A DNA stretch of 41,839 nucleotides from Gemmatimonas sp. Lineage in GTDB: Bacteria > Gemmatimonadota > Gemmatimonadetes > Gemmatimonadales > Gemmatimonadaceae. The position numbers were made by a program, and so were the translations under genes. A model generated the notes under the pieces. That model had not been told where the DNA came from. It did no database searches and saw only the letters and a program-made list of their open reading frames with translations. Positions 2,351 through 35,524 of the stretch are shown here, one piece after another. Position 1 is the stretch's first letter. Each line of letters begins with the position of its first letter. The DNA lies in assembly GCA_031414535.1 (NCBI GenBank), contig JANNVQ010000046.1, positions 1-41,839 of the forward strand, given 5' to 3'.

Positions 2351-2561
2351 GACGGATGACGGCTGCTACAGGAGGGGTGGGGGCCTGCGGGCTCCCACCC
2401 CTCATCCATATTAGAGCTTCCGTCCCAGCCCCCGGTGTTGCACTTTCTGAGTCCCGCTCGTCCTCCGCTGAGATAGCCCAAGGTCCGTCCCATGTTCGCT
2501 GGGGCGGGCAGAAACCGTCGGAAACCGGAACGCTTTTGGCATCCGTCATCCGTCATACGTC
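2351..2561. repeat. ATCCGTC heptamer family: inverted arms framing the ssb-LysM intergenic region
   Basis: GACGGATGACGG at 2351-2362 and ATCCGTC-ATCCGTC-ATACGTC at 2541-2561. Confidence 0.8.
2372..2403 (+). terminator. GC-rich hairpin after ssb (possible terminator or RNA-stabilising stem)
   Basis: GAGGGGTGGGGGCC-TGCG-GGCTCCCACCCCTC, a 14-bp stem with one G-U pair; no clear U-tract. Confidence 0.5.
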
Positions 2562-2579
2562 TCACACAGGCTTCGCACC

Positions 2580-3728
2580 ATGTCGATTCGCCGTCAGCTC
2601 TCCGCCACGCTCGTCCTCCTCGCCATCACCCCGGCTCTCGCTGCCGCTCAGGGCGAGGCTGCACGGACGCATACCGTGAAAACGGGCGACACCTTGTGGG
2701 ATCTCGCCCAGCAGTACCTCGGCGATCCATTCAAGTGGCCGGAGATCTATCGGCGCAATCAGAGCACCATTCAGGACCCGAACCTCATCTATCCCAATCA
2801 GGTGATTGTCATCTCGGGCGATGTGAGTTCCACGGCAGGGACGCCAGCCGACGCGACTGGAACGGGACAGGTCGGCCAAACTGGCCAGTCTAACGCCGAT
2901 ACATCCATGGTGTCGGACACCCTTTCACCGCAGCAGGCGCCGCTTCCGGTGCCTACGATGACCATTTTCAATCCCGATCGCTTCCGCGTCGTCCGCGGTG
3001 AGCGTAGGGCACTTCGCATTCAGGACCCCGCATCCGCCGTCCGCACGGGAGACTATCTGCAGGCTCCCTTCATGTGGGACGCATCCGGGGTGAAGGGTGC
3101 AGGCCAGGTCACGGAGGGCAGTTCCACGGACGGTATTGGCATTTACAACACCGAGCGTCCCATCCAGTACATGGAGGAACTCTACGTGCGTGTGCCGGAG
3201 GGCTCGGCCGGCAACGTGGATGATCGCTATCTGTTGTTCCGGTATGGTCCGACCATCGAGGGGCAGGGGCGCGTTGTGGTGCCGACCGGGATCGTGAAGG
3301 TGACGAGGCCCGCCGTGAGCGGGCGCGCGCAGGCGGTGCTGCTTGCCAAGTTTGAGGATGTGTTTGCCGGTCAGGCCATCATGCCCCTGGACACTCTCTC
3401 CATCGCGCCAGGGGTGTTCCCCTCGCGCGTTGAATTCGGCCTCGCCACGACCATCACCTACGTCTACGGTAATCCCGTGCTGCCGCCGGTGGGCCACCAG
3501 ATCATCTTCGGGGCGAAGGCCAGCGACGGTGTAGTGCCAGGCGACCAACTGACCCTCCAGGTGCCAGGCAACATCGCGGCCGACGGTTCGGTGCTTCCAA
3601 CGCAGGACGTCGCGATTGCGCAGGTCACGCGCGTCACCCCTTGGGGTGCCAGCGCAATCATCATTAGCCAGACCGATGGTGGGATTGTCAGGGGCATGGC
3701 CGCACGCCTCTCTGGCAAGATGCCCTGA
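2580..3728 (+). CDS. Exported LysM peptidoglycan-binding protein, TsaP-like
   Basis: Signal peptide, then LysM (HTVKTGDTLWDLAQQYLGDPFKWPEIY...IQDPNLIYP), a linker and a beta-rich C-terminal region; the TsaP resemblance is by motif recognition only. Confidence 0.75.
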   Translation: MSIRRQLSATLVLLAITPALAAAQGEAARTHTVKTGDTLWDLAQQYLGDPFKWPEIYRRNQSTIQDPNLIYPNQVIVISGDVSSTAGTPADATGTGQVGQTGQSNADTSMVSDTLSPQQAPLPVPTMTIFNPDRFRVVRGERRALRIQDPASAVRTGDYLQAPFMWDASGVKGAGQVTEGSSTDGIGIYNTERPIQYMEELYVRVPEGSAGNVDDRYLLFRYGPTIEGQGRVVVPTGIVKVTRPAVSGRAQAVLLAKFEDVFAGQAIMPLDTLSIAPGVFPSRVEFGLATTITYVYGNPVLPPVGHQIIFGAKASDGVVPGDQLTLQVPGNIAADGSVLPTQDVAIAQVTRVTPWGASAIIISQTDGGIVRGMAARLSGKMP

Positions 3729-3778
3729 GGCGCTGCTGCCCCGGTGTGTAAAGCCGCATCTGTCGGCTAGTTTTGGGC

Positions 3779-4729
3779 ATGACTCAAAAACGTGCACTTG
3801 TCACCGGAGGAGCCGGGTTCATTGGCTCCCATGTGTCTGACGCTCTGCTGGCCGATGGATGGAACGTAACAGTTCTCGATGACCTCTCGAGCGGCAAACG
3901 AGAGCAGGTCCCGACTGCCGCGCATTTTGAGCAGGCAGACATTCGCTCCGCCGAGGCTGCCAAGCTCGTGCGTGAAGGGAAGTTCGACCTGCTCTGCAAT
4001 CTCGCGGCGCAGATGGATGTCCGACGCTCCGTCTCCGATCCGTCCTTCGACGCCGACGTCAACATTCGCGGTTCGTTGAATCTGATCGAGGCCGTGCGAG
4101 CCAGCGGCCACGCGACGCGTGTCATCTTCGCGTCCACGGGCGGCGCAGTGTACGGCGACTTCGTCGAGCCGCCGAATATTGAGACCTACGAAAAGAATCC
4201 GGAGAGTCCCTACGGCATTGCCAAGTTCGCCGTGGAACTCTACCTCGCGTACTACGCGCGCATCCACGGGCTCGACTACGTGGCGCTACGCTTTGCCAAC
4301 GTGTTTGGCCCGCGGCAGGATCCGCATGGAGAAGCCGGCGTCGTGGCCATCTTCTGCCAGCGTCTCATCGCGGGAACTCCGCTCACCGTGTACGGCGATG
4401 GCGGACAGACGCGCGACTACGTCTATGTCGGTGATGTGGCTCGTGCCCATGTCCTCGCGGCAAACGGGGCGGTGATGCCCGCCGCTCGCGTGGACGAACG
4501 CGGTATCAATATCGGCACTGGTCGCGAGACCTCCGTGATTGAGCTCGCCACCGTGCTGATGCGCGCGGCGGGACGCTCGGCTCCGCTGCAACACGCGCCG
4601 GCTCGTGCGGGGGAACAACGCCGCTCGGTCGTGAGTATCGAGAAGGCAGGGCGCGTGCTTGGTTGGACGCCTGAAGTCACGCTCGAAGATGGCCTCGCCA
4701 AGACCTTTGCCTGGTTTGCCCAACGCTGA
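3779..4729 (+). CDS. NAD-dependent epimerase/dehydratase (UDP-glucose 4-epimerase-like extended SDR)
   Basis: TGGAGFIGS, STGGAVYG, YGIAK (YxxxK) and NVFGPRQDPHGEAGVV motifs. Confidence 0.9.
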   Translation: MTQKRALVTGGAGFIGSHVSDALLADGWNVTVLDDLSSGKREQVPTAAHFEQADIRSAEAAKLVREGKFDLLCNLAAQMDVRRSVSDPSFDADVNIRGSLNLIEAVRASGHATRVIFASTGGAVYGDFVEPPNIETYEKNPESPYGIAKFAVELYLAYYARIHGLDYVALRFANVFGPRQDPHGEAGVVAIFCQRLIAGTPLTVYGDGGQTRDYVYVGDVARAHVLAANGAVMPAARVDERGINIGTGRETSVIELATVLMRAAGRSAPLQHAPARAGEQRRSVVSIEKAGRVLGWTPEVTLEDGLAKTFAWFAQR

Positions 4730-5436
4730 TGCTCTTTTTTCAGATCAAGTCCGCGATTCCCTCCACCCGCTTTGAGCTGATTCTGAACTCGAGCGACGAG
4801 ACAAAGGTCGTACTCGTTGTCCTCGTGGTGCTCTCGTTGCTCTCCTGGTCGGTGATGCTGACGAAGTGGTTGGCCTTCCATCGTGCCGAGAAGTCTGGGC
4901 GCGAATTCCTCGTGGAGTTCCACAAGGGCGGCAAGCTCGAGGCCGTCGCTTCGCTGGCCAAGCGCTCCAAGCCCTCGGCGTACACGCGCGTGCTGCAGCG
5001 GGCCCTGCAGTTCCTGCAGGAGACGGGCCTCGTGCGCGGAGAAGACGGAAAGCCCGCGCAACTCTCCGCCTCGCAGGTACAGGCTCTGCGCCTCGTGCTG
5101 GACTCCGAGACCAACTCCGAGCGCGAGCGCCTGGGAAGCTGGATTCCCACGCTTGCGATGATCGGCTCGGTGTCGCCGCTCTTGGGGCTACTCGGAACCG
5201 TGCTGGGCATCATTGAGGCCTTCCTTGGCGTGGCGCGCGGCGGCTCGGGTAACCTTGCGGCCATTGCGCCGGGCGTGGCCGAGGCACTGATCGCGACGGC
5301 GACGGCACTGGCCGTCGCGATTCCCGCGTACTTTGGCTACAACATCTTCGCGGCGCGTCTCAACCGCTTTGATGGCGAGTTGGAGGGCTTCGGGACTGAA
5401 GTGATTGCCCTGATGGCGCGCGAGGGACGGCTCTAG
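4729..5436 (+). CDS. tolQ: MotA/TolQ/ExbB proton channel protein
   Basis: SPLLGLLGTVLGI and APGVAEALIATA motifs; first gene of a tol-pal cluster. Confidence 0.9.
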   Translation: MLFFQIKSAIPSTRFELILNSSDETKVVLVVLVVLSLLSWSVMLTKWLAFHRAEKSGREFLVEFHKGGKLEAVASLAKRSKPSAYTRVLQRALQFLQETGLVRGEDGKPAQLSASQVQALRLVLDSETNSERERLGSWIPTLAMIGSVSPLLGLLGTVLGIIEAFLGVARGGSGNLAAIAPGVAEALIATATALAVAIPAYFGYNIFAARLNRFDGELEGFGTEVIALMAREGRL

Positions 5437-5437
5437 G

Positions 5438-5854
5438 ATGCGGCGTCGCGGTCGCGGTGATCGTACGCCCTTGCTCGCGGAAATCAACGTCGTCTCGTTG
5501 ATTGACGTGATGATGCTGCTGATGATCATCTTCATGATCACGGCGCCAATGATGCAGGGCGGCGTGGACGTGGAGTTGCCACGGGCGGCCGCCCGTCCGC
5601 TCAACGCCAACACCGCACTCGTGGTGAGCGTCACTCGCGATGGCCGCATCTTCGCAGATGATGTGGAACTCTCGCTGGGCGAATTCCGCGGCAGCTTTCG
5701 CACGTTGGCCGAGCAGTCCGGCCGCGCCGGTGTGTACCTGCGCGCGGATCAAGGCGTCCCCTACGGCCGCGTGGTTGAGGTGCTGGCCATCATGCGTGGT
5801 GCAGGCGTGGGGAACATCGGTCTCGTTGCCGAGCCGGAGGACCTGGACCGTTGA
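5438..5854 (+). CDS. tolR: TolR/ExbD family protein
   Basis: EINVVSLIDVMMLLMIIFMITAPMM and LRADQGVPYGRVVEV motifs. Confidence 0.9.
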   Translation: MRRRGRGDRTPLLAEINVVSLIDVMMLLMIIFMITAPMMQGGVDVELPRAAARPLNANTALVVSVTRDGRIFADDVELSLGEFRGSFRTLAEQSGRAGVYLRADQGVPYGRVVEVLAIMRGAGVGNIGLVAEPEDLDR

Positions 5855-6558
5855 GTGCCGTGCAGCGGCCCACCGGGGGGATTGGCGGCGCCTTCGTGCT
5901 CTCAGTCGTGTTGCACGTCGCCGTGGTGCTGCCCTTCGTGGTGTGGAAAGCCGCGCCGGAGGCTGCGCTGCCACCGATGTACAAAGTGGATCTGGTCGGT
6001 GCACCGCCTGGCGAGCGGCAGATGGGCGTGGTGCGCGAGAATCCGCCAGCCAACGAGCCCACGGCGCCCGCGCCGCCCAAGGCCTCGACGGCCGAGCCGG
6101 TAAAAACTGCGCCCATCAACCCACCCACGCGCCGTCGGGAGCCCACACGCGCGACGCCGAATGTTGTTGAGAAGTCCACCACACGCGTCGATGCATCGAA
6201 GGCGCCGACGGCTGGCAGTGGTGCTACGGGCAATACGGGCACAGATGTGGCAACAGTGCGCACGGAAGGGATCAATTTTCCATTTCCGGGGTACTTAGAA
6301 AACATCGTGCGCCAGGTGGCGTTGAACTTCAGGCCCCGCAATCCCGGGGCCCTGAAGGCTGAAGTCTTTTTCTTCATCCGGCGCGATGGCTCGGTGACCG
6401 GTTTTCGATTCATCTCTAGCAGCGGCAACTTTGCATTTGACCTCGAAGCCCAGGGTGCGGTCGAAGCCGCGGCCCGGCGATTTGGCGCTTTGCCCGCTGA
6501 CTTCTCTGACGACATCCTCCCGGTGACGTTTTCCTTCGACCCCGCACGCCTGCGATGA
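5851..6558 (+). CDS. TolA/TonB-like energy transducer (TM anchor, Pro-rich linker, TonB C-terminal domain)
   Basis: N-terminal SVVLH TM motif, Pro-rich linker and IRRDGSV...SSGNFAFDLEA C-terminal domain; occupies the tolA position. Confidence 0.8.
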   Translation: MSAVQRPTGGIGGAFVLSVVLHVAVVLPFVVWKAAPEAALPPMYKVDLVGAPPGERQMGVVRENPPANEPTAPAPPKASTAEPVKTAPINPPTRRREPTRATPNVVEKSTTRVDASKAPTAGSGATGNTGTDVATVRTEGINFPFPGYLENIVRQVALNFRPRNPGALKAEVFFFIRRDGSVTGFRFISSSGNFAFDLEAQGAVEAAARRFGALPADFSDDILPVTFSFDPARLR

Positions 6559-7856
6559 CGCGAGTGCTCCGCTGTACGATTCGCGCAATGGCCCTCGTGG
6601 CCCTCGTGGCCCTCGTGGCCCCTCTGGCTCCCGCACTTCGCGCGCAGGATTCTGGCGTGCGCATAGGTCTCACCTACACGGCAGGCACTCGGCCGGCGGT
6701 GTATCTGCTGCCCGTCACCGGCCCGTACAACGACAGCATTCGTGCCATTCTCGCACGTGATCTCGACTTCGGCGACCGCGTCTCCGTAATTGCGCCGGAT
6801 TCTGGGGCTCCCGTCAACGGCCCACTCAATTATCAGTTGTACTCCCGCCTCGGTGCGGCTGCCGTGCTACGCGTGAGTCAGGCCATGGGCGGTGGGGTCA
6901 ACGTTGAGTTGCACGAAGTCGGTGCAGCGCGCGTACTGCAAAAAAAGGACGTGCGCATCACGTCCGAGCCCCTCTCCGCGGAGTGGCGTATGGCGCTGCA
7001 CCACGTGAGCGATGAGGTCGAGGAGTGGATTACGGGTGTTCGGGGCATCGCTGCCACGCGCATCATGTTCAACCGCAACGGTACGCTGTGGACCGTGGAC
7101 GCCGACGGCGCGAACGTGCGACAGATTCCCGGCCTGTCGTCCGGCTTCAGCCCGGCCTGGCACCCGAACGGCCGTATGATTGCATACTCGAGCTACGCGG
7201 ACGATGGCTCGCACGTGTATGTGCGCGAACTCCTCACTGGCAACGCGCGTCGGGTCTCGTTTGATATCGGCGTCAACCTCACGCCCGCGTTTTCGCCCGA
7301 CGGCAAGACGGTGGTCTTTGCCTATGGGAGCGATGCATCGGACCTCTGGTCGGTGAAGCTACAGGGCGGGGAAGGCCCCGTGCGGATTACGGTTGGGCGG
7401 GGCAGCGAGAACGTCCAACCCACATTTTCGCCGGATGGTCGTCGCATCGCGTTCACCTCTGGGCGGCTGGGGCGCCCGGAGATATATATTACGGACGCAG
7501 ATGGAACGAACCCGCAGTGGTTAACCACGACGGGCTTCGGCGACCAGTCGTATCGGTCCGATCCCTCCTGGGCGCCTGATGGCCGTTCTGTGGCCTTCCA
7601 GACGCAGATTGAAGGCCGCTTTCAAGTGGCGACAATCAACCTGCGGGACCGGTCTGTAAAGCAGCATACCATCGAAGGCATCAACGAGCAGCCGTCTTGG
7701 TCACCAGACGGCAGGCACTTGGTTTTCACGTCGAATCGCGGCGGTTCGCGTCAGATGTGGGTACTCGACACGGAATCCGGGCGCATGCGTCAACTCACAA
7801 CCGGAGCCCCGGCTCGAATGGGCGCTTGGTCACCGCGCTTGATTGCAACACCCTAA
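6555..7856 (+). CDS. tolB: Tol-Pal beta-propeller protein TolB
   Basis: Signal peptide and repeated PD40 motifs (PAWHPNG, PAFSPDG, PTFSPDG, PSWAPDG, PSWSPDG); upstream of pal. Confidence 0.92.
   Translation: MTRVLRCTIRAMALVALVALVAPLAPALRAQDSGVRIGLTYTAGTRPAVYLLPVTGPYNDSIRAILARDLDFGDRVSVIAPDSGAPVNGPLNYQLYSRLGAAAVLRVSQAMGGGVNVELHEVGAARVLQKKDVRITSEPLSAEWRMALHHVSDEVEEWITGVRGIAATRIMFNRNGTLWTVDADGANVRQIPGLSSGFSPAWHPNGRMIAYSSYADDGSHVYVRELLTGNARRVSFDIGVNLTPAFSPDGKTVVFAYGSDASDLWSVKLQGGEGPVRITVGRGSENVQPTFSPDGRRIAFTSGRLGRPEIYITDADGTNPQWLTTTGFGDQSYRSDPSWAPDGRSVAFQTQIEGRFQVATINLRDRSVKQHTIEGINEQPSWSPDGRHLVFTSNRGGSRQMWVLDTESGRMRQLTTGAPARMGAWSPRLIATP
6591..6617 (+). repeat. In-frame 9-bp tandem repeat (GCCCTCGTG)x3 in the tolB signal peptide
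   Basis: Three perfect copies encoding ALV-ALV-ALV. Confidence 0.85.
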
Positions 7857-7870
7857 GGTCCTTGCTCGTC

Positions 7871-7914
7871 ATTCTCTCGTAGTTCTTTCGTTGTTCTTTC
7901 GTTGTTCTTTCGTT
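7871..7914 (+). repeat. 11-bp tandem repeat (GTTCTTTCGTT)x3 plus one degenerate copy, between tolB and pal
   Basis: Perfect copies at 7882-7892, 7893-7903 and 7904-7914; ATTCTCTCGTA at 7871-7881. Confidence 0.9.
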
Positions 7915-7959
7915 GTCCATTTGCAGCACGTTGTAGTCACCCTTTTTGAGGTCCGATTT

Positions 7960-8595
7960 ATGAACTCCCGCCTTCCGATGCTTACGACGCTCGCGGCCGC
8001 TGTGGTTGTGATGTCCGCCTGCCCGTCCAAGACGCCGCCGCCACTTCCGATGCCGGCCGTGAACCAGGACTCCATTGACGCCGCCCGCGCGCGCGCCGAG
8101 ACCGAGGCCGCTGAGCGTGCCCGCCGTGAGGCCGAGGCTCGTGCCGCCGCCGAGCGTGAAGCCGCTGCCCGTACCGCTCGCGAAGCTGAAGAGCGCGTCC
8201 GTCGTGAGGCCGCTTCGGCCATGGCGTCCGCGCGTGCAGCCTTCGCCTCGAAGATCTTCTTCGACCTCGACCAGTCCACCCTCACCACGCAAGCCCGCGC
8301 CATCCTCGACGCGAAGCTCCCCTTGATGCGCACCAACGTCAACGTCCGCATCCGCATCGCTGGTCACACCGACGAGCGTGGTTCTGACGCCTACAACATC
8401 GCCCTCGGTCAGCGTCGTGCCGCTGCCGCCAAGCGCTACCTCGTGGACAACGGCATCGCCGCTGACCGCATTGACGTGGTGAGCTTCGGCGAAGATCGTC
8501 CGGCTGCGATGGGCTCTGATGAGGCCGCGTGGTCGCAGAACCGCCGCGATGAGTTCGAGATCATCGTTGGTGGGGAGACGCTCCGCCTCCCGTGA
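7960..8595 (+). CDS. pal: Peptidoglycan-associated lipoprotein Pal
   Basis: Lipobox-like MSAC, OmpA-like domain (IFFDLD, GHTDERGSDAYNIALGQRRA, QNRR); GAGG upstream of ATG 7960. Confidence 0.95.
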   Translation: MNSRLPMLTTLAAAVVVMSACPSKTPPPLPMPAVNQDSIDAARARAETEAAERARREAEARAAAEREAAARTAREAEERVRREAASAMASARAAFASKIFFDLDQSTLTTQARAILDAKLPLMRTNVNVRIRIAGHTDERGSDAYNIALGQRRAAAAKRYLVDNGIAADRIDVVSFGEDRPAAMGSDEAAWSQNRRDEFEIIVGGETLRLP

Positions 8596-9425: not shown

Positions 9426-9461
9426 GCTGAGGGGCCGGCAGCGCCGGTCCCGGAGCGCTCG

Positions 9462-16450: not shown

Positions 16451-16528
16451 TCACCACGAAGGCACGAAGGGTTCCGAGGCGCATCGGAGTTCCGCCTCAC
16501 GTCCGAGCCCCTCGTGCCTTCGTGGTGA
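16451..16528. repeat. Palindromic REP-like element, TCACCACGAAGGCACGAAG family, copy 1
   Basis: 21-bp inverted arms at 16451-16471 and 16508-16528 with one mismatch. Confidence 0.9.
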
Positions 16529-16542
16529 AGCGGTTGCCGTTC

Positions 16543-16577
16543 TCTCCCGTCCCACGTCCCACGTCTCACGTCCCAAG
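16543..16577 (+). repeat. Heptamer tandem array, consensus TCCCACG, 5 units
   Basis: TCTCCCG TCCCACG TCCCACG TCTCACG TCCCAAG, ending 3 nt before GTG 16581. Confidence 0.85.
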
Positions 16578-16580
16578 TCC

Positions 16581-22977: not shown

Positions 22978-23091
22978 ACTGGACGGAAGCCGGATGACGG
23001 ATGCTGACGGCCAAGAAAGCGCGGGGGTGAGCAATGAGCTCACCCCCGCGCTTTGTCGCTATTAGCATCCGTCTTCCGTCTTCCGTCCAGT
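22978..23091. repeat. ATCCGTC-family 28-bp inverted arms enclosing a terminator hairpin
   Basis: ACTGGACGGAAGCCGGATGACGGATGCT (22978-23005) versus AGCATCCGTCTTCCGTCTTCCGTCCAGT (23064-23091), two mismatches. Confidence 0.9.
23016..23054. terminator. Probable bidirectional intrinsic terminator between convergent tatA and ppiD-like genes
   Basis: Perfect 17-bp stem AAAGCGCGGGGGTGAGC / GCTCACCCCCGCGCTTT with a 5-nt loop. Confidence 0.75.
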
Positions 23092-23111: not shown

Positions 23112-24944
23112 TCACTCCACCACCTGTCTCCGCAACGTCGCATTCACTTCGCGCCGCTTGTCTATCACATTCGCATCCCGACGCAGCGCATCAATGAAGC
23201 TGCGGATGCGCGCTTCACGCGCGGCTGGCAGTTCGCGCTGGCGCAGGATGGTCTTGATCATCTCGAAATCCGCGCGATCAGTGGTACTGCGGTTGTCAAC
23301 GCGAAGCACGAACACCGCGTCGATGGTGCGGACGAGCACCGGCGTGCCCACTGGCGCGCCAAACGCGGCGCCGACGGCCTCGTTGCTGTAGCCGAGTCCG
23401 GGGACGAACGTGCGGCGATTGAACGGCGCGGAGGATTGCACCTGCACACCAGCCTTTACGGCGGCGGCTTCCAACGACGTGCCTCGTGCGTCGGCAAGAA
23501 GAGCCTCCGCCGTGCTGACCACGCCTTCCACGGACTTCCGCTCCTTCAGCGCCTGAATGATGTCCTCCTGCACGCGCTCGAAGGGCTGCTTGCCGCCCTC
23601 GACGAGCGAGTCAAGACGCACGAGGTAGTAGCCATCTGTGTCGTCAATGAGGTCACTGGTCTCGCCGACTCGCGTCCCGCTGAATGCGAATCCAGTGATG
23701 CCACGCACGCCGCGGCCAGCATATGTCGCGGCCTGGCCTTCGACCACGGGTACCTGGGTGACGAGCAACGAGAGCGCCTGCGCGGCCTCGTCAAACTTCT
23801 TGGGGTCGGAATTGCCGGCTGCGAGGCTCGCGAGGCGGTCCGCTGCTCGGTCCGTCGCTGTGGCGGCGGAATCGCCCTGCGCCACGCGCAGAAGAATGTG
23901 ACGCACCGCGAGGGTGTCGCCCTTCTTCTCGGTGGCCTGAATGAGGTGCCAGCCGAAGTCCGTCTTCACCGGCTCGGAGATCTGCCCAGCACGCAGCGCG
24001 AAGGCCGCATCCTCAAACGCGGCCACGAAGCGACCCCGCACGCCGCGGCCCAAGTCGCCGCCGTTCGCGGCGGAGACGGAGTCCTGCGACTCGCGCTTCG
24101 CGACATCAGCGAAGCTGGACTGTCCGCTCGAGATTTCTGTGCGCAGTGCCCGCAGGCGCGCGAGCGTTGCCGCGGAATCTGCGGCCGTTGGGGTGCGGGG
24201 GATGGCAACGACGGAAACGACCGCGCGGCCCGGACGGACCCAGCGATCCTCGTACTGCTCGTAGTAGCGACGAGCATCGGCCACACTGACGTCGGCGGCC
24301 TGGAACTGCGCCGGAGTCGGACGGAAGGCCGCGAAGGAGACGGTGGCGGAGTCGCGCTCATCCTTGTACGCCTGCCACAACACCTCGTCGCTCATCCAGG
24401 TCTCAGCAGCCACCTGCGCAAAGAGCTTGGTGCGGGGCAGTTCCGTGCGATAATAGTCTTCAAGCTGGCGCAGAAGGCCCTGCTGGCGCGCGGCCGGCGA
24501 GGTCAGGAAGCGCTGGTACTTGGCCGGGTCAAACTGGCCATCCGTCTGCAACTCCGGCGCCTGCATGAACTGCGGCGGCGGTGAGAACTTGGCAGCGTCA
24601 ATGATCTCCTGATCCGTGACCCGGATGCGTCGACGCTCGTACTCTTGTTGAAGGAGGATGTCCGAGACCAACTGGTCGAAGGCCGCCTGTTCTGCTTGAA
24701 GGCGCTCGTCCAAGGTCACGGCCCGGCCCGACTGTTGCTCCTGCTGTTGCACGAGCTGGCGTGTCAGGTTCTCCCACGTGAGGTAGGGAATCTTTTCTCC
24801 GTTCACTTCGCCCACGATGGTCGAAGTGCTCACGCCTGTCTGACCGATGAGGCCGGACATGTCGGCAAGCAAGAACCCGCCGACGAAGGCGACGAAGAGG
24901 AAGATCCAGATGAACTTGGCAGCGCCCCGCATCTGTTGAAGCAC
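23112..24944 (-). CDS. Membrane-anchored periplasmic chaperone/parvulin PPIase (PpiD/SurA-like)
   Basis: N-terminal TM segment, SurA_N-like region and rotamase domain (FADVAKRESQD..SAANGGDLG...ISEPVKTDFGWHLI). Confidence 0.9.
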   Translation of the reverse strand: MLQQMRGAAKFIWIFLFVAFVGGFLLADMSGLIGQTGVSTSTIVGEVNGEKIPYLTWENLTRQLVQQQEQQSGRAVTLDERLQAEQAAFDQLVSDILLQQEYERRRIRVTDQEIIDAAKFSPPPQFMQAPELQTDGQFDPAKYQRFLTSPAARQQGLLRQLEDYYRTELPRTKLFAQVAAETWMSDEVLWQAYKDERDSATVSFAAFRPTPAQFQAADVSVADARRYYEQYEDRWVRPGRAVVSVVAIPRTPTAADSAATLARLRALRTEISSGQSSFADVAKRESQDSVSAANGGDLGRGVRGRFVAAFEDAAFALRAGQISEPVKTDFGWHLIQATEKKGDTLAVRHILLRVAQGDSAATATDRAADRLASLAAGNSDPKKFDEAAQALSLLVTQVPVVEGQAATYAGRGVRGITGFAFSGTRVGETSDLIDDTDGYYLVRLDSLVEGGKQPFERVQEDIIQALKERKSVEGVVSTAEALLADARGTSLEAAAVKAGVQVQSSAPFNRRTFVPGLGYSNEAVGAAFGAPVGTPVLVRTIDAVFVLRVDNRSTTDRADFEMIKTILRQRELPAAREARIRSFIDALRRDANVIDKRREVNATLRRQVVE

Positions 24945-25093
24945 GGCGGAGAATCCTGAGACGAGATGAAAGAAGAACCGGCGGAGCAGGACCGGCGCGG
25001 GGCCCTCAGGCCCGGCGCATCAATTGCACCGCAGGGGGGAATAGCAAAGCCCCGAAACCTAGCCGCCGAACTGACCTAAAATCAAGCCAGACG

Positions 25094-25144: not shown

Positions 25145-25194
25145 CACACTGGGGCAACCCCAGGCTTTTCCAACCTTCTTTTTCCCCCCCCCGG

Positions 25195-27399: not shown

Positions 27400-27839
27400 G
27401 AATCGCGGTATTCAACGGGCCGAATCTCAACCTGCTCGGCATTCGCGAGCCAGAAATTTACGGCACCACGACACTCGAGGAAATCGAGGCCCGACTCGAA
27501 GTCGTCGGCGCCGAACTCGGCGTCACGCTGCTCTTCTCGCAGTTCAATGATGAAGGTCGCATGCTCGATGCCATTCACAACTGCCGAGGTGTGGTGCAAG
27601 GCGCGCTGGTGAACGCCGGCGCGTGGACGCACACGAGCCTCGCCCTGCGCGATGCCTTCACGGGCGTGAAGTTGCCGTACGTGGAAGTGCACCTCAGCAA
27701 CATCTACGCGAGGGAGCCGGAGCGGAGGCATTCGTGGCTGGCTCCCGGCGCCATTGGCATCATCGCGGGCTTCGGCGCTGAAGGGTATGAGCTGGCTTTG
27801 CGTGGATTGGCGAAGGCGCTGGCGGAGCGAGGCGAATAG
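27396..27839 (+). CDS. aroQ: Type II 3-dehydroquinate dehydratase
   Basis: NGPNLNLLGIREPEIYG, NAGAWTHTS and EVHLSNIYARE motifs; GTG 27396 overlaps the upstream stop. Confidence 0.97.
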   Translation: MRIAVFNGPNLNLLGIREPEIYGTTTLEEIEARLEVVGAELGVTLLFSQFNDEGRMLDAIHNCRGVVQGALVNAGAWTHTSLALRDAFTGVKLPYVEVHLSNIYAREPERRHSWLAPGAIGIIAGFGAEGYELALRGLAKALAERGE

Positions 27840-28011
27840 CGAGGAGCGAAGAGCGAACATCGAAAATCGAAAAGCGAAGAGCGAGGGGTTAAGGTTCCAA
27901 GGGTCGAAGGGGAAGACCTTCTCGATCTTGCCTTCGCTCCTTCATCGCTTCGTTCTTCGCTCTTCGTTCTTCGTACTTCGCTCTTCATCTCTTCGCTCCT
28001 CGCTCTTCCCC
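27832..28011. repeat. Inverted pair of degenerate heptamer arrays (GCGAAGA / CTTCGCT)
   Basis: Eight purine-rich units at 27832-27887 and about nine pyrimidine-rich units at 27948-28011. Confidence 0.9.
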
Positions 28012-29337: not shown

Positions 29338-29344
29338 ACGGCTG

Positions 29345-29456
29345 TTCACCACGGAGGCACGGAGTCTCGGAGAACGGCAAAGCAGGCTCTTGGTAGTTGT
29401 GGTTCATACCCATCCCGCTCCGTTCTTCCTCTGTGTCTCCGTGCCTCCGTGGTGAA
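29345..29456. repeat. Palindromic REP-like element, TTCACCACGGAGGCACGGAG variant, copy 2
   Basis: Perfect 20-bp inverted arms at 29345-29364 and 29437-29456. Confidence 0.92.
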
Positions 29457-29489
29457 GCCGTTGAATGTTTCCTCAAACGCAATCAATCA

Positions 29490-29945
29490 ATGATCCGCTC
29501 ACTCATCCTCGCCTTTGCCGCACTCTCACTGAGCGGCTGTCAGTCGCTCATGCGTCAGGCCTTCGCCTCGCCGGTCGTCAACGTGTCCGACGTCCGCGTC
29601 CGAAACATCGGCTTGACCGGCGGCACCATTGACGTGGTCCTCGAGATCCAGAATCCCAACGAGTATCGCATTGATGCCGAAGCTATTTCGTACAACTTCT
29701 TCGTGGACACCACCAAGATTGTATCCGGACAGCTCACGCAGCGCCTGACGCTCGAAGAGAAGGGCAAGACCAGCCTCACCATCCCCGTGAACTTCGACAA
29801 TCGTGCGCTTCAGTACGCCATGCGTGCCTACCTGCAGCGGGGCGCGCTCGAGTACAAGGTGGACGGCGTGTTCACGCTCGTCACACCAGTGGGACGTCTC
29901 ACGCGCCCCTACTCGGGCACGGGACGCGTTGAAGGGATGCCGTGA
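29490..29945 (+). CDS. LEA type 2 (WHy domain) lipoprotein
   Basis: Lipobox LSGC and the NPN motif (LEIQNPNEY). Confidence 0.85.
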   Translation: MIRSLILAFAALSLSGCQSLMRQAFASPVVNVSDVRVRNIGLTGGTIDVVLEIQNPNEYRIDAEAISYNFFVDTTKIVSGQLTQRLTLEEKGKTSLTIPVNFDNRALQYAMRAYLQRGALEYKVDGVFTLVTPVGRLTRPYSGTGRVEGMP

Positions 29946-31240
29946 GTAAAGACATTATTGACCTCGCACCCTCGCAGGAGCGTGCCATTCTCGTTGGCGC
30001 GCCGGTCAAGCGGAGCAACGCCAAGCACCACGTGCAGGAGCATTTGGAGGAACTCGCGCGCCTGGCTGATACCGCAGGAGCGAAGGTCGTCGCCACACTC
30101 ACGCAGCAAGTGGACCGGCCCGATCCGTCCACCTACATCGGACGTGGCAAGGTGGAGGAGCTGAAGGCGCTCATCACTGAGAAAGACGCCACGCTCGTGA
30201 TCTTCGACGACGAACTCTCGCCCGCACAGGGCAAGAACCTCGAAGGCGAAGTCGGTAAGCGCGTGATCGATCGCGCGGAGCTCATTCTCGACATCTTCGC
30301 CGTGCGCGCGCGCTCGGCCGAGGCCCGCATGCAGGTGGAACTCGCACAGCTCGAGTATTCGCTGCCGCGCTTGGTGCGCATGTGGACGCACTTGGAGAAG
30401 TTCCGCGGTGGCATCGGCGTGCGCGGCCCCGGCGAAACACAGCTCGAAACCGACCGCCGGCTCGTGGGCCATCGCATTCGGCTGCTCAAGGATCGTCTCG
30501 TGGATGTGGCCAAGGCGCGCGAAATTCAGCGCTCCGGCCGCAGCAATAGCCTGAGGGCCGCGCTCGTCGGGTACACGAATGCCGGCAAGAGCTCCATCCT
30601 CCGCTCCGTCGCGCACTCGGCCGAAGTCTTCGTCGAGGACCGCCTCTTCGCGACGCTCGATCCCTTGACGCGCGAAGTGGACCTCGGCGATCACCAGTCC
30701 GCTCTCCTCACAGATACCGTGGGCTTCATCCGCAAGCTGCCTCACCATCTGGTGGCCAGCTTCCGCGCCACACTCGAGGAAGTGCGAGAGGCCGATCTTC
30801 TCTTTCACGTGATTGATGCCTCGCATCCCACGTGGGAAGAGCAGCGACTCGTCGTGGATGAAGTGCTTGCCGACCTCGGCGTGGCGGCAACGCCCACCCG
30901 CTACGTGTTCAACAAGATGGACGCGCTTCCCGAGGATCAGCGTGAAGCACTGATGGCCCGTATCGCCAACTTGGCGCCCGACTCCCTCTTTGTGTCAGCG
31001 GTGACAGCGGGCGGACTTGAGCCACTGCGTGATGCCTTGCGCGAAGCCCTACGCAACAGGCGACCTGAGGTGGAATTGTTGATTCCGATGACGCACGGCA
31101 AGCTACTCGCCGACGTGCACCGGGCGGGAGAGATTCTCGCAAGTGAGCCGGATCAAGAGGAAGGCGTGATGCGGATTCGCGGGCGTTTTGAGCCTGCTGC
31201 CCTCGCCAAGCTCGAACACGAAGGCGCCACACGCGCATGA
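29942..31240 (+). CDS. hflX: Ribosome-splitting GTPase HflX
   Basis: GPGETQLETDRR, GYTNAGKSS, LFATLD, DTVGFI and NKMD motifs. Confidence 0.97.
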   Translation: MSKDIIDLAPSQERAILVGAPVKRSNAKHHVQEHLEELARLADTAGAKVVATLTQQVDRPDPSTYIGRGKVEELKALITEKDATLVIFDDELSPAQGKNLEGEVGKRVIDRAELILDIFAVRARSAEARMQVELAQLEYSLPRLVRMWTHLEKFRGGIGVRGPGETQLETDRRLVGHRIRLLKDRLVDVAKAREIQRSGRSNSLRAALVGYTNAGKSSILRSVAHSAEVFVEDRLFATLDPLTREVDLGDHQSALLTDTVGFIRKLPHHLVASFRATLEEVREADLLFHVIDASHPTWEEQRLVVDEVLADLGVAATPTRYVFNKMDALPEDQREALMARIANLAPDSLFVSAVTAGGLEPLRDALREALRNRRPEVELLIPMTHGKLLADVHRAGEILASEPDQEEGVMRIRGRFEPAALAKLEHEGATRA

Positions 31241-32346
31241 CGCGGTCGAGGCAGGCGCCTTACGCCGAGCGGCTCGCGCGCCTACGAGCCTCGCTCGCGC
31301 AGAGCGAACTCGATGCGCTGCTCGTCTCCGCACTGCCCAACATTCGCTATCTCACCGGATTCACGGGTTCCAACGGACTCGTCCTCGTGACGGCGGACGA
31401 AGCGGTGCTCGTCACGGACTTTCGCTACGCCGTACAGGTGAAGCTCGAGCTGGCACACGAAGTCAGAGTCGTCATTGAGCAAAGCTCGCTGTGGACGCGG
31501 CTCTGGACTGAACTCAAGTCGTTGCCGAAGGTCGAGGTGCTGGCTTTCGAGACCGCGCATACCACGCATCAGGATGCCGCACGCTACGTGGCGGGTGTGG
31601 GAGAGGGCGGCGCCTGGCATTGGCGTCCGGCACTCAACCTCGTTGAGGTGCTGCGCGAGTCCAAGGACGACTCCGAACTCGCGCACATCCGCGCCGCCGT
31701 TTCAATCGCCGAGCACGCGTTGGCCAAGACGCTCCCGAAGGTCAGGGCAGGGATGACCGAGCTCGCCGTCGCCGGTCTGCTGGAGTACGAGATGCGTCTG
31801 GCAGGCAGCGAGCGGACCGCATTTGAGACCATCGTCGCTGCTGGAGCCCGATCGGCCCTGCCGCACGCCCGCGCGTCAGCCCAGGTCATTGCGAACGGCG
31901 ATCTCCTCCTGATTGACTTCGGGGCCACGAGCGGTGGCTATGTGAGCGATATCACACGCACCTTCGTACTCGGGCGCGCCGCCGACGAGAAGCAGCTTGA
32001 GGTCCACACCGTAGTTCGTGAGGCAAACGCTAGCGCTTCGGCTCTTGTTCGGGCCGGAATGCGCGGAAGGGATGCCGACGGGCTCGCGAGGGACTACATT
32101 CACCGCCGCGGCTATGGGGCCGCATTTGGCCATTCGACGGGGCACGGGATCGGTCTGGAGATCCACGAATCCCCCCGTTTGGCCAAGACCGCCGAGGCCC
32201 CATTGCCTACCGGTTCGGTGGTGACGATCGAACCCGGGATTTACTTGGAAGGGTGGGGAGGGGTGAGAATTGAGGACGACGTCATTCTCACGTCCGAGGG
32301 TCCGCAGGTGATTACGAGTTTCGAGCGTGGGCTAGTGCAACTATAG
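31237..32346 (+). CDS. Xaa-Pro aminopeptidase/dipeptidase (M24 family)
   Basis: NIRYLTGFTGS, DFG...SDITRT, HSTGHGIGLEIHE, TIEPGIY and GVRIEDD motifs. Confidence 0.93.
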   Translation: MTRSRQAPYAERLARLRASLAQSELDALLVSALPNIRYLTGFTGSNGLVLVTADEAVLVTDFRYAVQVKLELAHEVRVVIEQSSLWTRLWTELKSLPKVEVLAFETAHTTHQDAARYVAGVGEGGAWHWRPALNLVEVLRESKDDSELAHIRAAVSIAEHALAKTLPKVRAGMTELAVAGLLEYEMRLAGSERTAFETIVAAGARSALPHARASAQVIANGDLLLIDFGATSGGYVSDITRTFVLGRAADEKQLEVHTVVREANASASALVRAGMRGRDADGLARDYIHRRGYGAAFGHSTGHGIGLEIHESPRLAKTAEAPLPTGSVVTIEPGIYLEGWGGVRIEDDVILTSEGPQVITSFERGLVQL

Positions 32347-32351
32347 AAATT

Positions 32352-32414
32352 GACGGAAGACGGATGACGGATGCTGCTCGCATCGTTGTTCGCATCCGTC
32401 ATCCGTCATCCGTC
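32352..32414. repeat. ATCCGTC-family hairpin element (three heptamers per arm)
   Basis: GACGGAAGACGGATGACGGATGC (32352-32374) versus GCATCCGTCATCCGTCATCCGTC (32392-32414): 23-bp stem, one mismatch, 17-nt loop. Confidence 0.92.
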
Positions 32415-32430
32415 CGACAACAAACTCCCA

Positions 32431-32916
32431 ATGATTGACTTACGCTACGTCAAGAAGCTCCTCGAGATGCTCGACGAATCCACCGTCGACTCCATGGAAA
32501 TCTCGTCCGACAAGGGCATGCGCATTCGGCTGAGCAAGACGCCGGTAGCCCGCGGCACCGTACAGTACGCCGCGGCTCCTGCTCCCGCGCCTGCTCCCGC
32601 GCCTGCTCCGGTGCCCGCCGCTGCCGCATCGGCCGCGCCCATCGCTGAGGCCCCGGTTGCCCCGAGCAGCAAGGGCTTGGATGTGAAGTCGCCGATGGTC
32701 GGCACCTACTATGGCTCGCCCGAACCCGGTGCCAAGGCCTACGTCGCCGTTGGCCAGTCGGTGAAGAAGGGCCAGGTGCTGTGCATCATCGAGGCGATGA
32801 AGATTATGAACGAGATTGAGTCTGAGGTCTCGGGCAAGGTCACGGAGATTCTCGCGACGGATGCAGCGGCCGTCGAGTACGGCCAGGTCCTGTTCCGCGT
32901 GGATCCCAATGGCTGA
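32431..32916 (+). CDS. accB: Acetyl-CoA carboxylase biotin carboxyl carrier protein
   Basis: Ala/Pro linker, SPMVGTYY and the biotinylation motif EAMKIMNEI. Confidence 0.97.
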   Translation: MIDLRYVKKLLEMLDESTVDSMEISSDKGMRIRLSKTPVARGTVQYAAAPAPAPAPAPAPVPAAAASAAPIAEAPVAPSSKGLDVKSPMVGTYYGSPEPGAKAYVAVGQSVKKGQVLCIIEAMKIMNEIESEVSGKVTEILATDAAAVEYGQVLFRVDPNG

Positions 32917-34108
32917 GCAGCAACCGCCGGCAGCGAAGCCCGCGGCGGCGGCTCCTGCCGCATCTGCTGCCGCTTCGCCAGCACCAGCCACGCCCTACAA
33001 TTTCAAAATCGTACTGCAGACCATGGTCCAGCAGGGCGGGTCCGACCTTCACTTGAAGATCGGTCGCCCCCCGACCATGCGCTTGAACGGCGAACTCGTC
33101 CCCATGGAGTTGGCGCCGCTCAAGCCAGAGGACCTGCGCTCGATTGGCGAGCAGATTATCCCGCCCAAGCAGCGCAAAGAATTCGACGAGACCAAGGACG
33201 CCGACTTCGCCATCGGCGTGCCGGGCATTGGCCGCTTCCGCGTGAACGTGTATCAGCAGCGCGGCTCCTTGGCCTACGCCTTTCGCGCCATCGCCTTCCA
33301 AGCGACGACCATCGAAGAGCTCAATCTCCCCAGCATTTTGAAGGAGATCTCGCTTAAGAATCGCGGCCTCGTTCTCGTCACCGGCATCACCGGCTCGGGA
33401 AAGTCCACCGCGCTGGCCTCGATGATTCACTACGTGAACGAGCACAAGCACGCCAACATCATCTCGATTGAAGATCCGATCGAGTTCTTGCACCGCGACA
33501 TCAATTGCCACATCAACCAGCGTGAAGTCGGCACCGACACGGTGAGCTTCGGGCAGGCCCTGCGCCGCGTGTTGCGTCAGGACCCCGACATCATCATGAT
33601 CGGCGAAATCCGCGACCAAGAGACGCTTGAGATTGCGCTCAAGGCCGCCGACACCGGCCACATGGTCTTCTCCACGCTGCACACGATGGACGCGGCGCAG
33701 ACCATCAATCGCGTCCTGTCGTTCTATCCGCCCAACGAACAGGCAGACATTCGCTTTCAGCTCTCCTCCGCATTGCAGGCCGTCGTCTCGCTGCGCCTCG
33801 TGCCGCGCTCGGATCGCCCGGGTCGCATTCCTGCCTGCGAGATTCTCGTCAACACCGCGGCCGTGCAGGACAACATCCGCGATGCCAGCAAGTCGCTGAA
33901 CATTCCTGATCTCATCCGTGAAGGGACGGTGCAGTACGGAATGCAGAGCTTTGACCAATCCTTGATGAACTGGTACAACAAAGGCGTCATCTCGTACGAG
34001 TCGGCGCTCGCGTCCTCCACGAGCCCCGCAGAGTTTGCCCTCCGCACGCAGGGAATTGCGGGCACATCAGACGCCGGCTTCGCCGGTGTCACACAGGACG
34101 CGCGGTAA
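32909..34108 (+). CDS. pilT: Type IV pilus retraction-type ATPase (PilT/PilU family)
   Basis: SDLHL, Walker [31 protein letters not shown], His box [10 protein letters not shown] and [12 protein letters not shown] 32909 overlaps the accB end. Confidence 0.9.
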
Positions 34109-34113
34109 TCCCC

Positions 34114-35466
34114 ATGTTCAAGCGCATCTTGATTGCCAATCGGGGCGAAATTGCCCTTCGCATTATCCGCGCCTGTCGCGAGCTCGGCATCGAGACCGTG
34201 GCCGTCTACTCCGAGGCTGATCGCGAATCCCTGCACGTCCGCTTTGCCGATGACGATGTCTGCATCGGGCCGCCGGCCGCGCGCGATTCCTACCTCCGCA
34301 TCCCGCGCCTGATTGCCGCCGCCGAGATCACCGGTGCCGACGCCATTCACCCGGGCTACGGCTTCCTCGCTGAGAACGCCGAGTTCGCCGAGACCTGCGC
34401 GGCAAGCAACATCACGTTCATCGGCCCCACGCCGCAGCAGATTCGCACGATGGGCGACAAGTCTGCCGCGCGCGCGGCGATGATCGCCAACAACGTGCCC
34501 GTGGTCCCAGGATCGCCTGGTCCTGTCGAGGACGTGGACGAAGCGCTGGCCATCGCTGAGAAGATGGGATTCCCCGTCATCATCAAGGCGTCGGCAGGCG
34601 GTGGTGGTAAGGGCATGCGCGTCGCCAAGGATGCTGACGACTTTGCGCGTTCGTTCCAACTCGCACGCTCCGAAGCGCTGGGCGCCTTCGGCAACGGAAG
34701 CGTCTACGTGGAGAAGTACCTGCAGCGTCCGCGTCACGTGGAGTTCCAGGTCTTCGGTGATACGCACGGCAACGTGATTCACTTGGGTGAGCGCGACTGC
34801 TCGGTGCAGCGTCGTCACCAGAAGCTCGTCGAAGAAGGCCCCTGCCCAGTGATGACGCCGGAACTGCGTCAGCGCATGGGTGATGCCGCGGTGAAGGGTG
34901 CCAAGGCCATCAACTACGTGGGCGCCGGCACCATCGAGATGCTGCTCGACACTGATGGCTCGTTCTACTTCATGGAGATGAACACGCGCATCCAGGTGGA
35001 GCATTGCGTCACCGAGATGCTCACCGGTGTGGATCTCGTGAAGGAACAGATTCGCGTGGCCGCTGGTCTTCCGTTGAGCATGACGAAGACGCCGGAATTG
35101 CGCGGGCACGTGATCGAATGCCGCGTGAATGCCGAAGACCCGCATCGCAACTTCCAGCCGTCGCCGGGCAAGGTGGAGGTGTTCCACATGCCGGGTGGCA
35201 ACGGCGTGCGCGTGGATACGCACGTGTACGCGGGCTACACGGTGCCGCCGTTCTATGACTCGATGATTGCCAAGCTCATCGTGCACGGAAAGGATCGCGA
35301 GGAAGCGCTCGCCAAGATGCGCCTCGCGCTCGACACCTTCATCGTCGAAGGCGTGACGACGACGATTCCCTTCCTCTCCACGCTGATGTCGCATCCCAAG
35401 TTCATCGAGGGCGACATCCATACCAAGTTCTTGGAGCAGGAAGGGGCGGACCTGTTCACGACTTGA
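34114..35466 (+). CDS. accC: Acetyl-CoA carboxylase biotin carboxylase subunit
   Basis: [41 protein letters not shown] and [10 protein letters not shown] motifs. Confidence 0.98.
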
Positions 35467-35524
35467 GACGTGAGACTTGAGACGGGAGACCGAAGAGTGG
35501 GACGGATGACGGATGACGGATGCT
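35464..35524 (+). repeat. Two adjacent heptamer arrays: TGAGACG-type x4 and GACGGAT x3
   Basis: TGAGACG TGAGACT TGAGACG GGAGACC (35464-35491, first unit begins with the accC stop) and GACGGAT x3 (35501-35521). Confidence 0.88.

Follow-up and report, generated by a model that had tools for sequence, protein, structure and literature searches.

Oriented heptamer and octamer arrays in a Gemmatimonas genome and the small genes that carry the same repeat words

The short tandemly repeated repetitive (STRR) sequences of cyanobacteria are heptamer repeats. Arrays of this kind, hereafter called arms, lie at the gene junctions of a 41,839-nt stretch of Gemmatimonas sp. DNA, the window, which is the entire contig JANNVQ010000046.1 (C46) of a 3.70-Mb, 58-contig genome that is 98% complete (G000). 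As far as the consulted texts of the two articles go, the GGGAATC heptamers of Xanthomonas and Nostoc have the same polarity relative to stops and starts in print (Rehm et al. 2015, PMC4692102, where Calothrix heptamers are also cited and a lack of detailed literature on the intergenic heptamer excess of bacteria is noted), and for the TAACTGA repeats of Beggiatoaceae this polarity is partly in print (MacGregor 2015, PMC4679880).

Two further systems associate a repeat with a gene. In the RAYT-REPIN system (REP-associated tyrosine transposases and doublets of repetitive extragenic palindromes, REP), as described in the consulted text of 10.1101/2021.07.10.451892, a single-copy gene keeps to one extragenic position with its own repeat on either side, inverted doublets of some 100 bp occur by the hundred in extragenic space, one genome holds several gene-repeat pairs, few repeats are found where the gene is missing, and RAYT trees are congruent with those of the host. 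Some intervening sequences (IVS) of 23S rRNA bear an open reading frame encoding S23p (PF05635); in the consulted text of Warrier et al. 2016 (PMC4990558) the gene lies within terminal inverted repeats of tandem heptamers (GACAGAT in Coxiella), and a Xanthomonas protein of this family is stated to be a homopentamer.

A first-pass annotation of the window had suggested a search for genes flanked by the arrays, and three small single-copy genes of this type were found, all outside the window. Heptamer repeats and their polarity were already known. A general link to a gene, swaps of alleles at a fixed locus and the change of a word in place were not found in print, in a search that most subscription journals and supplements fall outside of; within the same limits, the Coxiella IVS paper (PMC4990558) was the only published link between gene and repeat.

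Orientation and word families of the arms

Genome-wide gene boundaries were obtained with our own codon-model caller (3277 genes), for which stops are exact and starts less exact. Gene names are those of NCBIfam; the labels tatA, hppA and ychF are assignments that we presume from the translations.

The heptamer arrays named in the first-pass annotation are all present, with coordinates right within a few bases. Scanning 306,546 nt of intergenic DNA for period gave 255 runs of period 7 against a mean of 1.2 in five dinucleotide shuffles; an intergenic heptamer excess of this sort, with stop/start polarity, is what characterizes STRR and long simple sequence repeats (LSSR). There were also 48 runs of period 8 (1.2 in shuffles), 62 and 25 runs at the harmonics 14 and 21, and no more than 24 runs for any of the remaining periods between 4 and 21. 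The window served to define four families: the heptamers A (GACGGAT, 334 arms, of which 265 have exactly three units and a few reach 8-9), B (GCGAAGA, 47 arms) and C (GACGTGA, 9 arms), and the octamer O (CACGGAGG, 125 arms), which had been overlooked. An arm of any family is present in 278 of the 3126 gaps of G000. Period 7 had been regarded as conserved and sequence as free to vary. The first idea had to be abandoned, as the octamer family O follows the same rule of orientation and the 8/9-mer family of the GxxExxY genes described below behaves alike; the second stands in so far as there are several words, and fails within any one family, where sequence is tightly conserved.

Orientation is non-random, as had been expected: within 300 nt, 179 pairs are arranged as purine arm then pyrimidine arm and 4 in reverse order. 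A substantial part of family A (100 arms) remained unpaired, and 56 of the 67 unpaired arms situated at most 30 nt from a gene end obey the rule. The earlier description, a purine arm after the stop and a pyrimidine arm before the start, is correct as far as it goes, and is really one strand-symmetric rule: the purine strand reads out of the gene into the gap. The same polarity is found at 5 of 5 3' ends of tRNA or tmRNA genes and at 2 of 2 5' ends carrying an arm of their own (the tRNA-Pro row was left out, its arm being common with the upstream tRNA-Arg), and the rule is therefore not tied to codons. Nor is a tie of the arrays to translation supported, given this polarity at tRNA genes and the presence of arms inside coding linkers. 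The pyrimidine arm does stand where a Shine-Dalgarno (SD) motif would usually be: 3 of 86 arm-bearing starts have such a motif against 966 of 3072 others, figures to be read with the bonus that the gene caller gave to SD motifs. Among gaps of at least 40 nt, divergent ones are depleted in arms (24 of 385) compared with co-directional ones (127 of 881). Neither of the outcomes named beforehand as refuting, random orientation and a period 7 no commoner than other periods, was seen; excess and orientation together uphold the proposal that one kind of process yields oriented short-period arrays of differing sequence at gene junctions.

With the published heptamers the arms have in common a purine strand lying up to 50 bp past stops (sense) and before starts (antisense), convergent pairs, a preferred unit number, rarity between divergent genes and SD-free starts. 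They differ from them in having cognate genes, allele swaps and a change of word in place, whereas no cognate gene is given in the consulted texts of PMC4692102 and PMC4679880, where a protein binding the repeats is a speculation of MacGregor; the words found here are, moreover, not of the G-quadruplex type.

Some features of the arm edges were also recorded. The offset between stop and first unit of family-A arms peaks at 0, 3 and 6 nt, with 61 in-frame cases against 18 and 19 for offsets 0-8; offset 3 mostly consists of TAA followed by CTG, CGG or CAG, and TAA or TAG are over-represented among the stops preceding these arms (78 of 113 against 49%). The hexamer AAC(T/G)GC, which is sometimes tandem, occurs in the outer 25 nt of 70 of the 125 O arms and in the inner 25 nt of 50 of the 334 A arms, for a background frequency of 1.6% of stretches. 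It also edges arms of other words in relatives, flanks of its type are found at 29338-29346 and 16528-16545 of the window, and it is possibly a shared tag or seed. O arms and A arms alike enclose members of one dispersed family of palindromes (GCCCGCACC...GGTGCGGGC type; C11:62073, C29:5496 and C14:285476 of G000).

Small genes flanked by the repeat words

No cognate transposase had been seen in the window. This was borne out even at the scale of the genome: the Y1 transposase profile of RAYT (PF01797) has 0 matches in 98%-complete G000, the control profile ringing in 6 of 14 genomes, and a RAYT/Y1 transposase was rejected as the cognate gene. The three genes flanked by arms are instead two four-helix-bundle genes (PF05635/TIGR02436) and one GxxExxY gene (PF13366). 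The former score 96.8 and 42.3 bits against PF05635 (curated cut-off 33.8) and 94.9 and 69.5 bits against TIGR02436 (cut-off 24); the PDB homologues of the four-helix-bundle protein are 2gsc (E 4.6e-13) and 2rld, with five chains per entry. Gene 1 (C27:29753-30148) has arms of family A; gene 2 (C29:98883-99197) has arms of family B, with the word of the aroQ-rarA doublet of the window; the GxxExxY gene (C24:46997-47368) has arms of family O, which are those of the doublet past rarA. These owner genes have a purine arm before their own start and a pyrimidine arm past their own stop, the reverse of host genes, and they obtain the top 3 inverted-flank scores among the 441 small genes tested. No cognate gene of family C was found in G000; this family flanks the four-helix-bundle gene of G012, G017, G023 and G004. 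Protein-binding tracks had been one of the options for the function of the arrays, and this option is now favoured because each family has its own small gene in G000 or in relatives.

Among 158 four-helix-bundle matches, 92 were fetched and 9 of them dropped for short flanks; 77 of the 83 loci scored have inverted flanks (called at a score of at least 12) compared with 9 of 83 for mismatched flanks, and the flank period is 7 in 56 loci and 8 in 11. For GxxExxY, 28 of 35 matches were used, 26 of which have inverted flanks (7 of 28 in the control); the best period is 8 or 9 in 26, and the gene lies beside one host gene in 22. The four-helix-bundle family is present in 45 of 55 genus genomes, G000 included, and a single-protein scan of a genome collection reached 8 loci, 7 of them named Gemmatimonas or Gemmatimonadaceae.

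The main four-helix-bundle gene adjoins ychF in 43 genomes, for a total of 44 copies, of which 40 could be seen to have hppA on the opposite side. It stays at one site and does not jump. The arm words linked to ychF change with the lineage (GACGGAT, GACGGAA, GACKTGA, GATGGGA, GATGTRA, GAGTTGT, GAAGGAT, GGTGTGA, TCAGGTG and others). Host genes of the sisters G010 and G033 have 93.4% nucleotide identity and their main-locus proteins 76%; the protein of G010 has 87.6% identity with its counterpart in the distant G007, and the arm word is the same in both. The sisters G061 and G071 also differ by allele and word. The main cassette, i.e. gene and arms, is exchanged in place between lineages. Of the two arms between hppA and ychF, one has a terminator-like hairpin on its inside and the other a -10-like box, and the pyrimidine arm at ychF is directly 3' of a conserved -10-like box. 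A jumping cassette leaving gene-less copies was rejected as the whole story, family-A interiors not being cassette remnants and the main gene being fixed; at most this model applies to some clades, namely the B-armed and GATGCGG-armed genes, which keep their word at several different loci.

The system resembles RAYT/REPIN: the cognate gene is single-copy, keeps to one site and has its own repeat on both sides, inverted doublets of roughly 100 bp occur by the hundred between genes (179:4 for the layout), several gene-repeat pairs are present in one genome, and repeats are few in genomes lacking the gene. It misses three defining features: the enzyme, the palindromic REP and the congruent tree. 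G000 has no Y1/HUH match and its owner genes are of the four-helix-bundle and PD-(D/E)XK folds; the arms are tandem 7-9-mers without internal palindrome and not short palindromic REP; the gene tree (a quick tree with many open forks) is not congruent with the host tree (2724 columns from three genes), alleles being swapped between sister species. A further difference is that most interiors of family A are unique, and host terminators, promoters or genes may form them, unlike the copies of a miniature inverted-repeat transposable element (MITE) or other non-autonomous DDE transposon, which have common interiors. By analogy, the arm system would behave like RAYT/REPIN at the population level.

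The likeness to the 23S rRNA IVS lies in the protein family and in the position of the gene within terminal inverted repeats of tandem heptamers, GACGGAT in our case. Unlike the IVS, both four-helix-bundle genes of G000 are between protein genes and not in 16S/23S rRNA, a host terminator-like hairpin and a -10-like box are found inside the arms, and there are hundreds of gene-less arms. Avd, a component of diversity-generating retroelements (DGR), is a four-helix-bundle pentamer that binds nucleic acid and is presumably kin of the PF05635-type owner protein; however, no Avd chain was matched by sequence and no dedicated reverse transcriptase partner was found. A telomerase-like or DGR-like partner was rejected, since reverse transcriptase (PF00078) is matched in only 2 of the 55 genomes and the sole match in G000 (C9:45658-46395, L144) lies among unrelated variable genes.

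Several owner loci deserve separate mention. G024 has two ychF-linked cassettes (L047 and L052) whose ychF sequences are apart on the tree; strain mixture or contamination is a possible origin of the duplicate. Past the hppA stop, the cassette edge carries extra arms: in G072 (L260) and G062 (L261) a pyrimidine arm stands back to back with the purine arm around AACTGC, and in G061 (L272) there is a mini-doublet. A four-helix-bundle clade from other families of the order (L015, L085, L090, L091, L019, L082 and L088) has 8-mer arms, some of which are nearly the GxxExxY arm word, so that the period is not fixed within the four-helix-bundle family. The neighbours of the G000 reverse transcriptase are defence-like genes, with integron-like cassettes adjoining, and an attC-like repeated site brackets small genes at C3:8808, C9:33531-48959 and C36:4793.

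Single arms, words and alleles

The comparison of orthologous gaps covered eight relatives for the window as a whole, two of these in part, and 27 of 29 for the M24-accB gap. Arms are gained or lost and words change between relatives. The hutU, radical SAM-hutI, aroQ and rarA gaps measure 2-28 nt in one lineage and are filled by differing families in others: the hutU gap that holds an O doublet in G000 has only 7 nt in G078 and G062, the aroQ-rarA gap is armless and 26-28 nt long in these same genomes, and the gap after rarA has 2-8 nt in G032, G023 and G065. The M24-accB gap holds other heptamers in other species. A G/C hairpin occupies the tatA gap of 7 of 7 relatives compared (it is weakest in G008) with differing arm words, and is near-identical in G017 and G078 beneath different arms. 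For G010 and G033, 5 of the 16 fetched G010 pieces were compared, the fifth pair being a chance run in coding DNA: one interior aligns, with D arms in one genome and F arms in the other (L179/L175), a 25-nt arm at a stop is present in G010 only (L185/L220), and one tRNA spacer is unchanged.

The DNA enclosed by the arms gives a similar picture. The short interiors of family A are all distinct (22 of 22) and 43 of the 51 long ones have no look-alike, the other 8 having one; family-O interiors have palindromes in common (37 of 46 at a score of at least 40). Target-site duplications show a faint excess at most in 112 family-A pairs (4 nt: 11 vs 6.3 +/- 2.3; 5 nt: 4 vs 1.6 +/- 1.2; 2 nt: 74 vs 66 +/- 5). 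Arms belonging to one pair do not resemble each other more than arms paired at random (35 of 75 vs 36.0 +/- 4.0; 58 vs 56.1; 37 vs 37.8), and only 1 of 17 non-consensus bases is mirrored in the partner. Because interiors are mostly unique, target duplication is not clear, pair arms are no more similar than chance and words change in place, the process looks like one that works arm by arm, each oriented arm being put down or renewed next to host DNA already there.

Three ideas on the arms were set aside. Formation of the partner arm by fold-back copying of the first does not agree with pair arms that are random-like and outside bases that are unpaired. That newer arms always lie inside older ones is not borne out, 3 outer and 2 inner family-C motifs beside A arms giving no signal. 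Pyrimidine arms as leaders behind a -10 box have weak support genome-wide (5 of 38 unpaired and 8 of 48 paired arms against a 7% background).

The absence of compensatory change between arms also tells against mRNA hairpins as a general selected function, another of the options first proposed. In a related explanation, paired arms would be IVS-like stems, cut by RNase III or shielding the insert and kept for that reason. Strong folding of four window doublets (z -6.6 to -12.5) agrees with it, as does the stem of about 23-25 bp formed by three units and inner GC; in the consulted text of PMC4990558, the Coxiella IVS has GACAGAT heptamers at an RNase III site and encodes a protein of the same family. 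We nevertheless hold this explanation to be improbable. Besides the random-like pairing and the many unpaired family-A arms, the accC arms fold like shuffles (z -1.08), and the hppA-ychF arms are probably not on one transcript, given the terminator-like hairpin and the -10-like box inside them. RNase III tolerates mismatches, and the absent compensation therefore weakens the explanation and does no more.

Arms are not confined to gaps: 38 are inside called coding sequences, including six pairs, some N-terminal ones possibly reflecting mis-called starts. Peptides such as GRMTDDGS and ASVIRHPSS result in frame. Rickettsia palindromic elements are likewise inserted in frame in proteins, and the arms resemble them as dispersed repeats tolerated in linkers, to which they add short peptides; unlike them, the arms are made of tandem units over 21-60 nt and have a cognate gene.

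Words were counted as overlapping exact matches across the 55 genomes. Family C has 196 matches in G012, 112 in G004, 79 in G023, 23 in G017, 3 in G000 and 2 in G031, and none in the other 49. Family A has 247 in G000, 95 in G024, 161, 122, 53 and 8 in the C-armed kin and 1-16 in six others, and none in 43. On the host tree, A/C-rich genomes surround G078, whose single contig has 1 match of A, 0 of C and 26 of its own word, which has 0 matches in G023 and G017. The F:D counts are 120:30, 53:1 and 51:5 in F-armed hosts and 36:29, 55:31 and 8:14 in D-armed hosts. In sampled DNA of two near-complete genomes that lack the family, period-7 runs are few, 2 in 163 kb for G035 (1.2 per 100 kb) and 3 in 198 kb for G064 (1.5 per 100 kb), the whole of G000 having 8.6 per 100 kb; 13 matches of the lineage's word remain in G064. 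Predictions fixed beforehand held in 7 of the 10 testable cases, G076 yielding no main-locus gene. The genome-wide repertoire follows present or earlier alleles in large part, although imperfectly, and the mismatched words would be layers left by earlier alleles.

From these observations we lean, with some reserve, towards a reading in which the owner proteins recognise their own word in DNA and cause arms to be added or rewritten at tolerant gene edges. A four-helix-bundle protein would bind its word in the case of 7-mers and some 8-mers, and a GxxExxY protein in the case of 8/9-mers. The word would spread by means of the host's own enzymes for repair or replication, which the bound protein would recruit or guide; with no Y1 transposase in G000 and so rare a reverse transcriptase, copying would have to use host enzymes. 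The simplest option would be short-patch conversion or strand switching between arms bridged by an oligomeric protein, and the GxxExxY protein, of nuclease fold according to its Pfam family, could nick. Host tolerance would set the positions of arms outside stops, starts and tRNA ends and in disordered linkers.

The four-helix-bundle alignment is invariant only at Q38 and G53, and near-invariant at R41, N49, E52, A69, S72 and E75. Helix 3 opens with a Ser/Thr (Ser59 in G000; S-Q-A-Q-F vs T/S-D), and for main-locus proteins whose arms could be read the residue that comes next is Gln in the 19 rows with xGA words and Asp (9) or Ser (1) in the 10 rows with xGG words; 11 of 12 new Gln/Asp rows follow the same split. 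A Gln/Asp switch near helix 3 may thus read one base of the word. A stronger version, in which alleles are exchangeable word-setting factors that read a 7- or 8-base word by a residue-to-base code, and have their own word written arm by arm and strand-specifically at the edges of host genes, terminators and promoters without transposase or reverse transcriptase, is doubtful, and we propose it as tentative.

A number of results weigh against writing by the owner proteins. Adjacent arms travel with the gene by linkage, so that only genome-wide counts test the link of gene and word. Related genomes are not independent. G017 and G023 carry a C-armed allele and yet have more A than C (122:23 and 161:79), G032 has a D-armed allele with 55 F against 31 D, in G061 the present word is matched 6 times and the other word of its lineage 38 times, the tatA arms of G078 are not its current word, and at one G010/G033 site (L195/L184) the words are opposite to the resident alleles. 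Earlier alleles account for such mismatches only after the fact. Three of the 10 predictions failed (G067, G069 and G073), and the comparison of run densities used window-syntenic or array-selected DNA for most gene-positive relatives. The Gln/Asp split corresponds to about one clade, so that a change occurring roughly once in the protein tree would have reached several hosts, and the alignment has no obvious catalytic set. A arms also bracket small host genes of an ordinary kind, in three cases. Finally, the words form a chain of one-base steps, and point mutation and slippage under selection could therefore rewrite arms.

Some of these points agree with neutral lineage-specific slippage, in which heptamers grow in tolerant gaps and the small genes are inserts in tolerant DNA: the one-base steps between words, the bracketed ordinary genes, the frequent disagreement of allele and repertoire, and the few arms of 8-9 units. 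A 7-mer slippage proposal is also cited in the consulted text of PMC4679880. We consider slippage very improbable, as it predicts neither the orientation of pairs nor the modal three units, leaves 77 of 83 armed owner loci unexplained when 278 of 3126 gaps hold any arm, and does not account for the B and GATGCGG protein clades, which keep their word at different loci, or for the lack of A and C words in G078. Slippage and RNase III hairpins fit worse than either writing by the owner proteins or the host network considered next.

In a domesticated host network, the protein would bind arms, as DNA or in transcripts, for the benefit of the host and without an active writing step. The benefit could be gene insulation, nucleoid organisation, or mRNA ends and SD-free initiation, and the arms would arise by slippage and short gene conversion, to be kept and retuned by selection after an allele swap. 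The gene is indeed kept at one site in 43 genomes, arms keep near consensus next to DNA that has diverged (75 purine arms have 17 non-consensus bases in all), divergent gaps are arm-poor, and pyrimidine arms replace SD motifs and directly follow the -10-like box at ychF. At a host identity of 81%, G000 and G017 have the same FtsK-linker arm in the same position (39168-39188; absent in 5 other aligned relatives), and a translational role has been proposed for the TAACTGA repeats in the consulted text of MacGregor (PMC4679880). On the other hand, gaps filled in one lineage have 2-28 nt in others and the families differ by lineage, arms occur in coding sequences, polarity is reversed at the start and stop of owner genes, the family is missing in 4 of 26 near-complete genomes, and an RNA-binding protein would meet opposite strands at starts and at stops. 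We judge a host network unlikely; it is compatible with writing by the owner proteins and the two are not mutually exclusive.

Arms in the window and their significance

The features of the window are collected in Table 1. The first-pass annotation has to be corrected for the gene that follows tatA, which is on the minus strand (23112-24944), so that the tatA gap is convergent.

Table 1. Positions of arms and associated elements in the window
Feature	Position	Strand	Remarks
Family A (GACGGAT) purine arm	2350..2367	+	Degenerate; 12 nt past ssb stop
Family A pyrimidine arm	2539..2565	+	Three units (2539-2561); ends 18 nt before lysM ATG; family-C-like unit outside
Family O (octamer) doublet	16452..16527	+	CACGAAGG variant; past hutU stop
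Family C (GACGTGA/GACTTGA) pyrimidine arm	16545..16579	+	Unpaired; 1 nt before radical SAM start
Family A purine arm	22980..23004	+	Past tatA stop
Host terminator-like hairpin	23016..23054	.	Between tatA-gap arms; probable role, from shape and convergent position
Family A pyrimidine arm	23065..23089	+	Equals purine arm past stop of the minus-strand gene
Family B (GCGAAGA) doublet	27832..28010	+	Contains aroQ TAG; ends 1 nt before rarA ATG
Family O (octamer) doublet	29347..29454	+	CACGGAGG; past rarA
Family A doublet	32351..32415	+	M24 peptidase-accB gap; arms 32351-32374 and 32392-32415
Family C purine arm	35460..35487	+	Includes accC TGA
Family A purine arm	35501..35521	+	Unpaired; stacked inside of the family C arm
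Family A pyrimidine arm	38328..38348	+	In frame (IRHPSSV); FtsK N-terminal linker; partial purine arm just 5'
Family A pyrimidine arm	39168..39188	+	In frame (IRHPSSV); FtsK linker
Family O (octamer) doublet	40772..40890	+	Past ftsK stop

Other short repeats and motifs were seen in the window. The tolB-pal gap contains an 11-mer tandem array (TTCTTTCGTTG, 4 copies, 7872-7916) not seen in the six relatives compared, and a perfect 9-mer repeat of 3.7 copies lies in the signal-peptide region of tolB (6589-6621). The lysM-epimerase gap (3729-3778) closes with a -10-like hexamer, some 7 nt ahead of the ATG; the seven genomes compared all have it, which suggests a leaderless mRNA.

PF05635 and GxxExxY are large families without known function, and the genus ties them to heptamer repeats. 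It also offers a direct test, with many alleles at one locus, each with its own word, swapped sisters and gene-less genomes, and a one-residue prediction is available (Gln/Asp vs A/G). Annotation calls for some caution, as spurious starts and in-frame peptides can come from arms even in core proteins such as FtsK. Should the owner proteins indeed bring about the writing of their word into DNA, repeats would propagate without a known transposase, by means of a compact, reprogrammable reader of nucleic acid. Were alleles to act as exchangeable word-setting factors, the swap of one 130-residue gene would re-letter hundreds of sites, and the GxxExxY nucleases would be a second, unrelated implementation. 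Sequence propagation of this kind would then be new, and heptamer repeats in many bacteria would have it as their origin.

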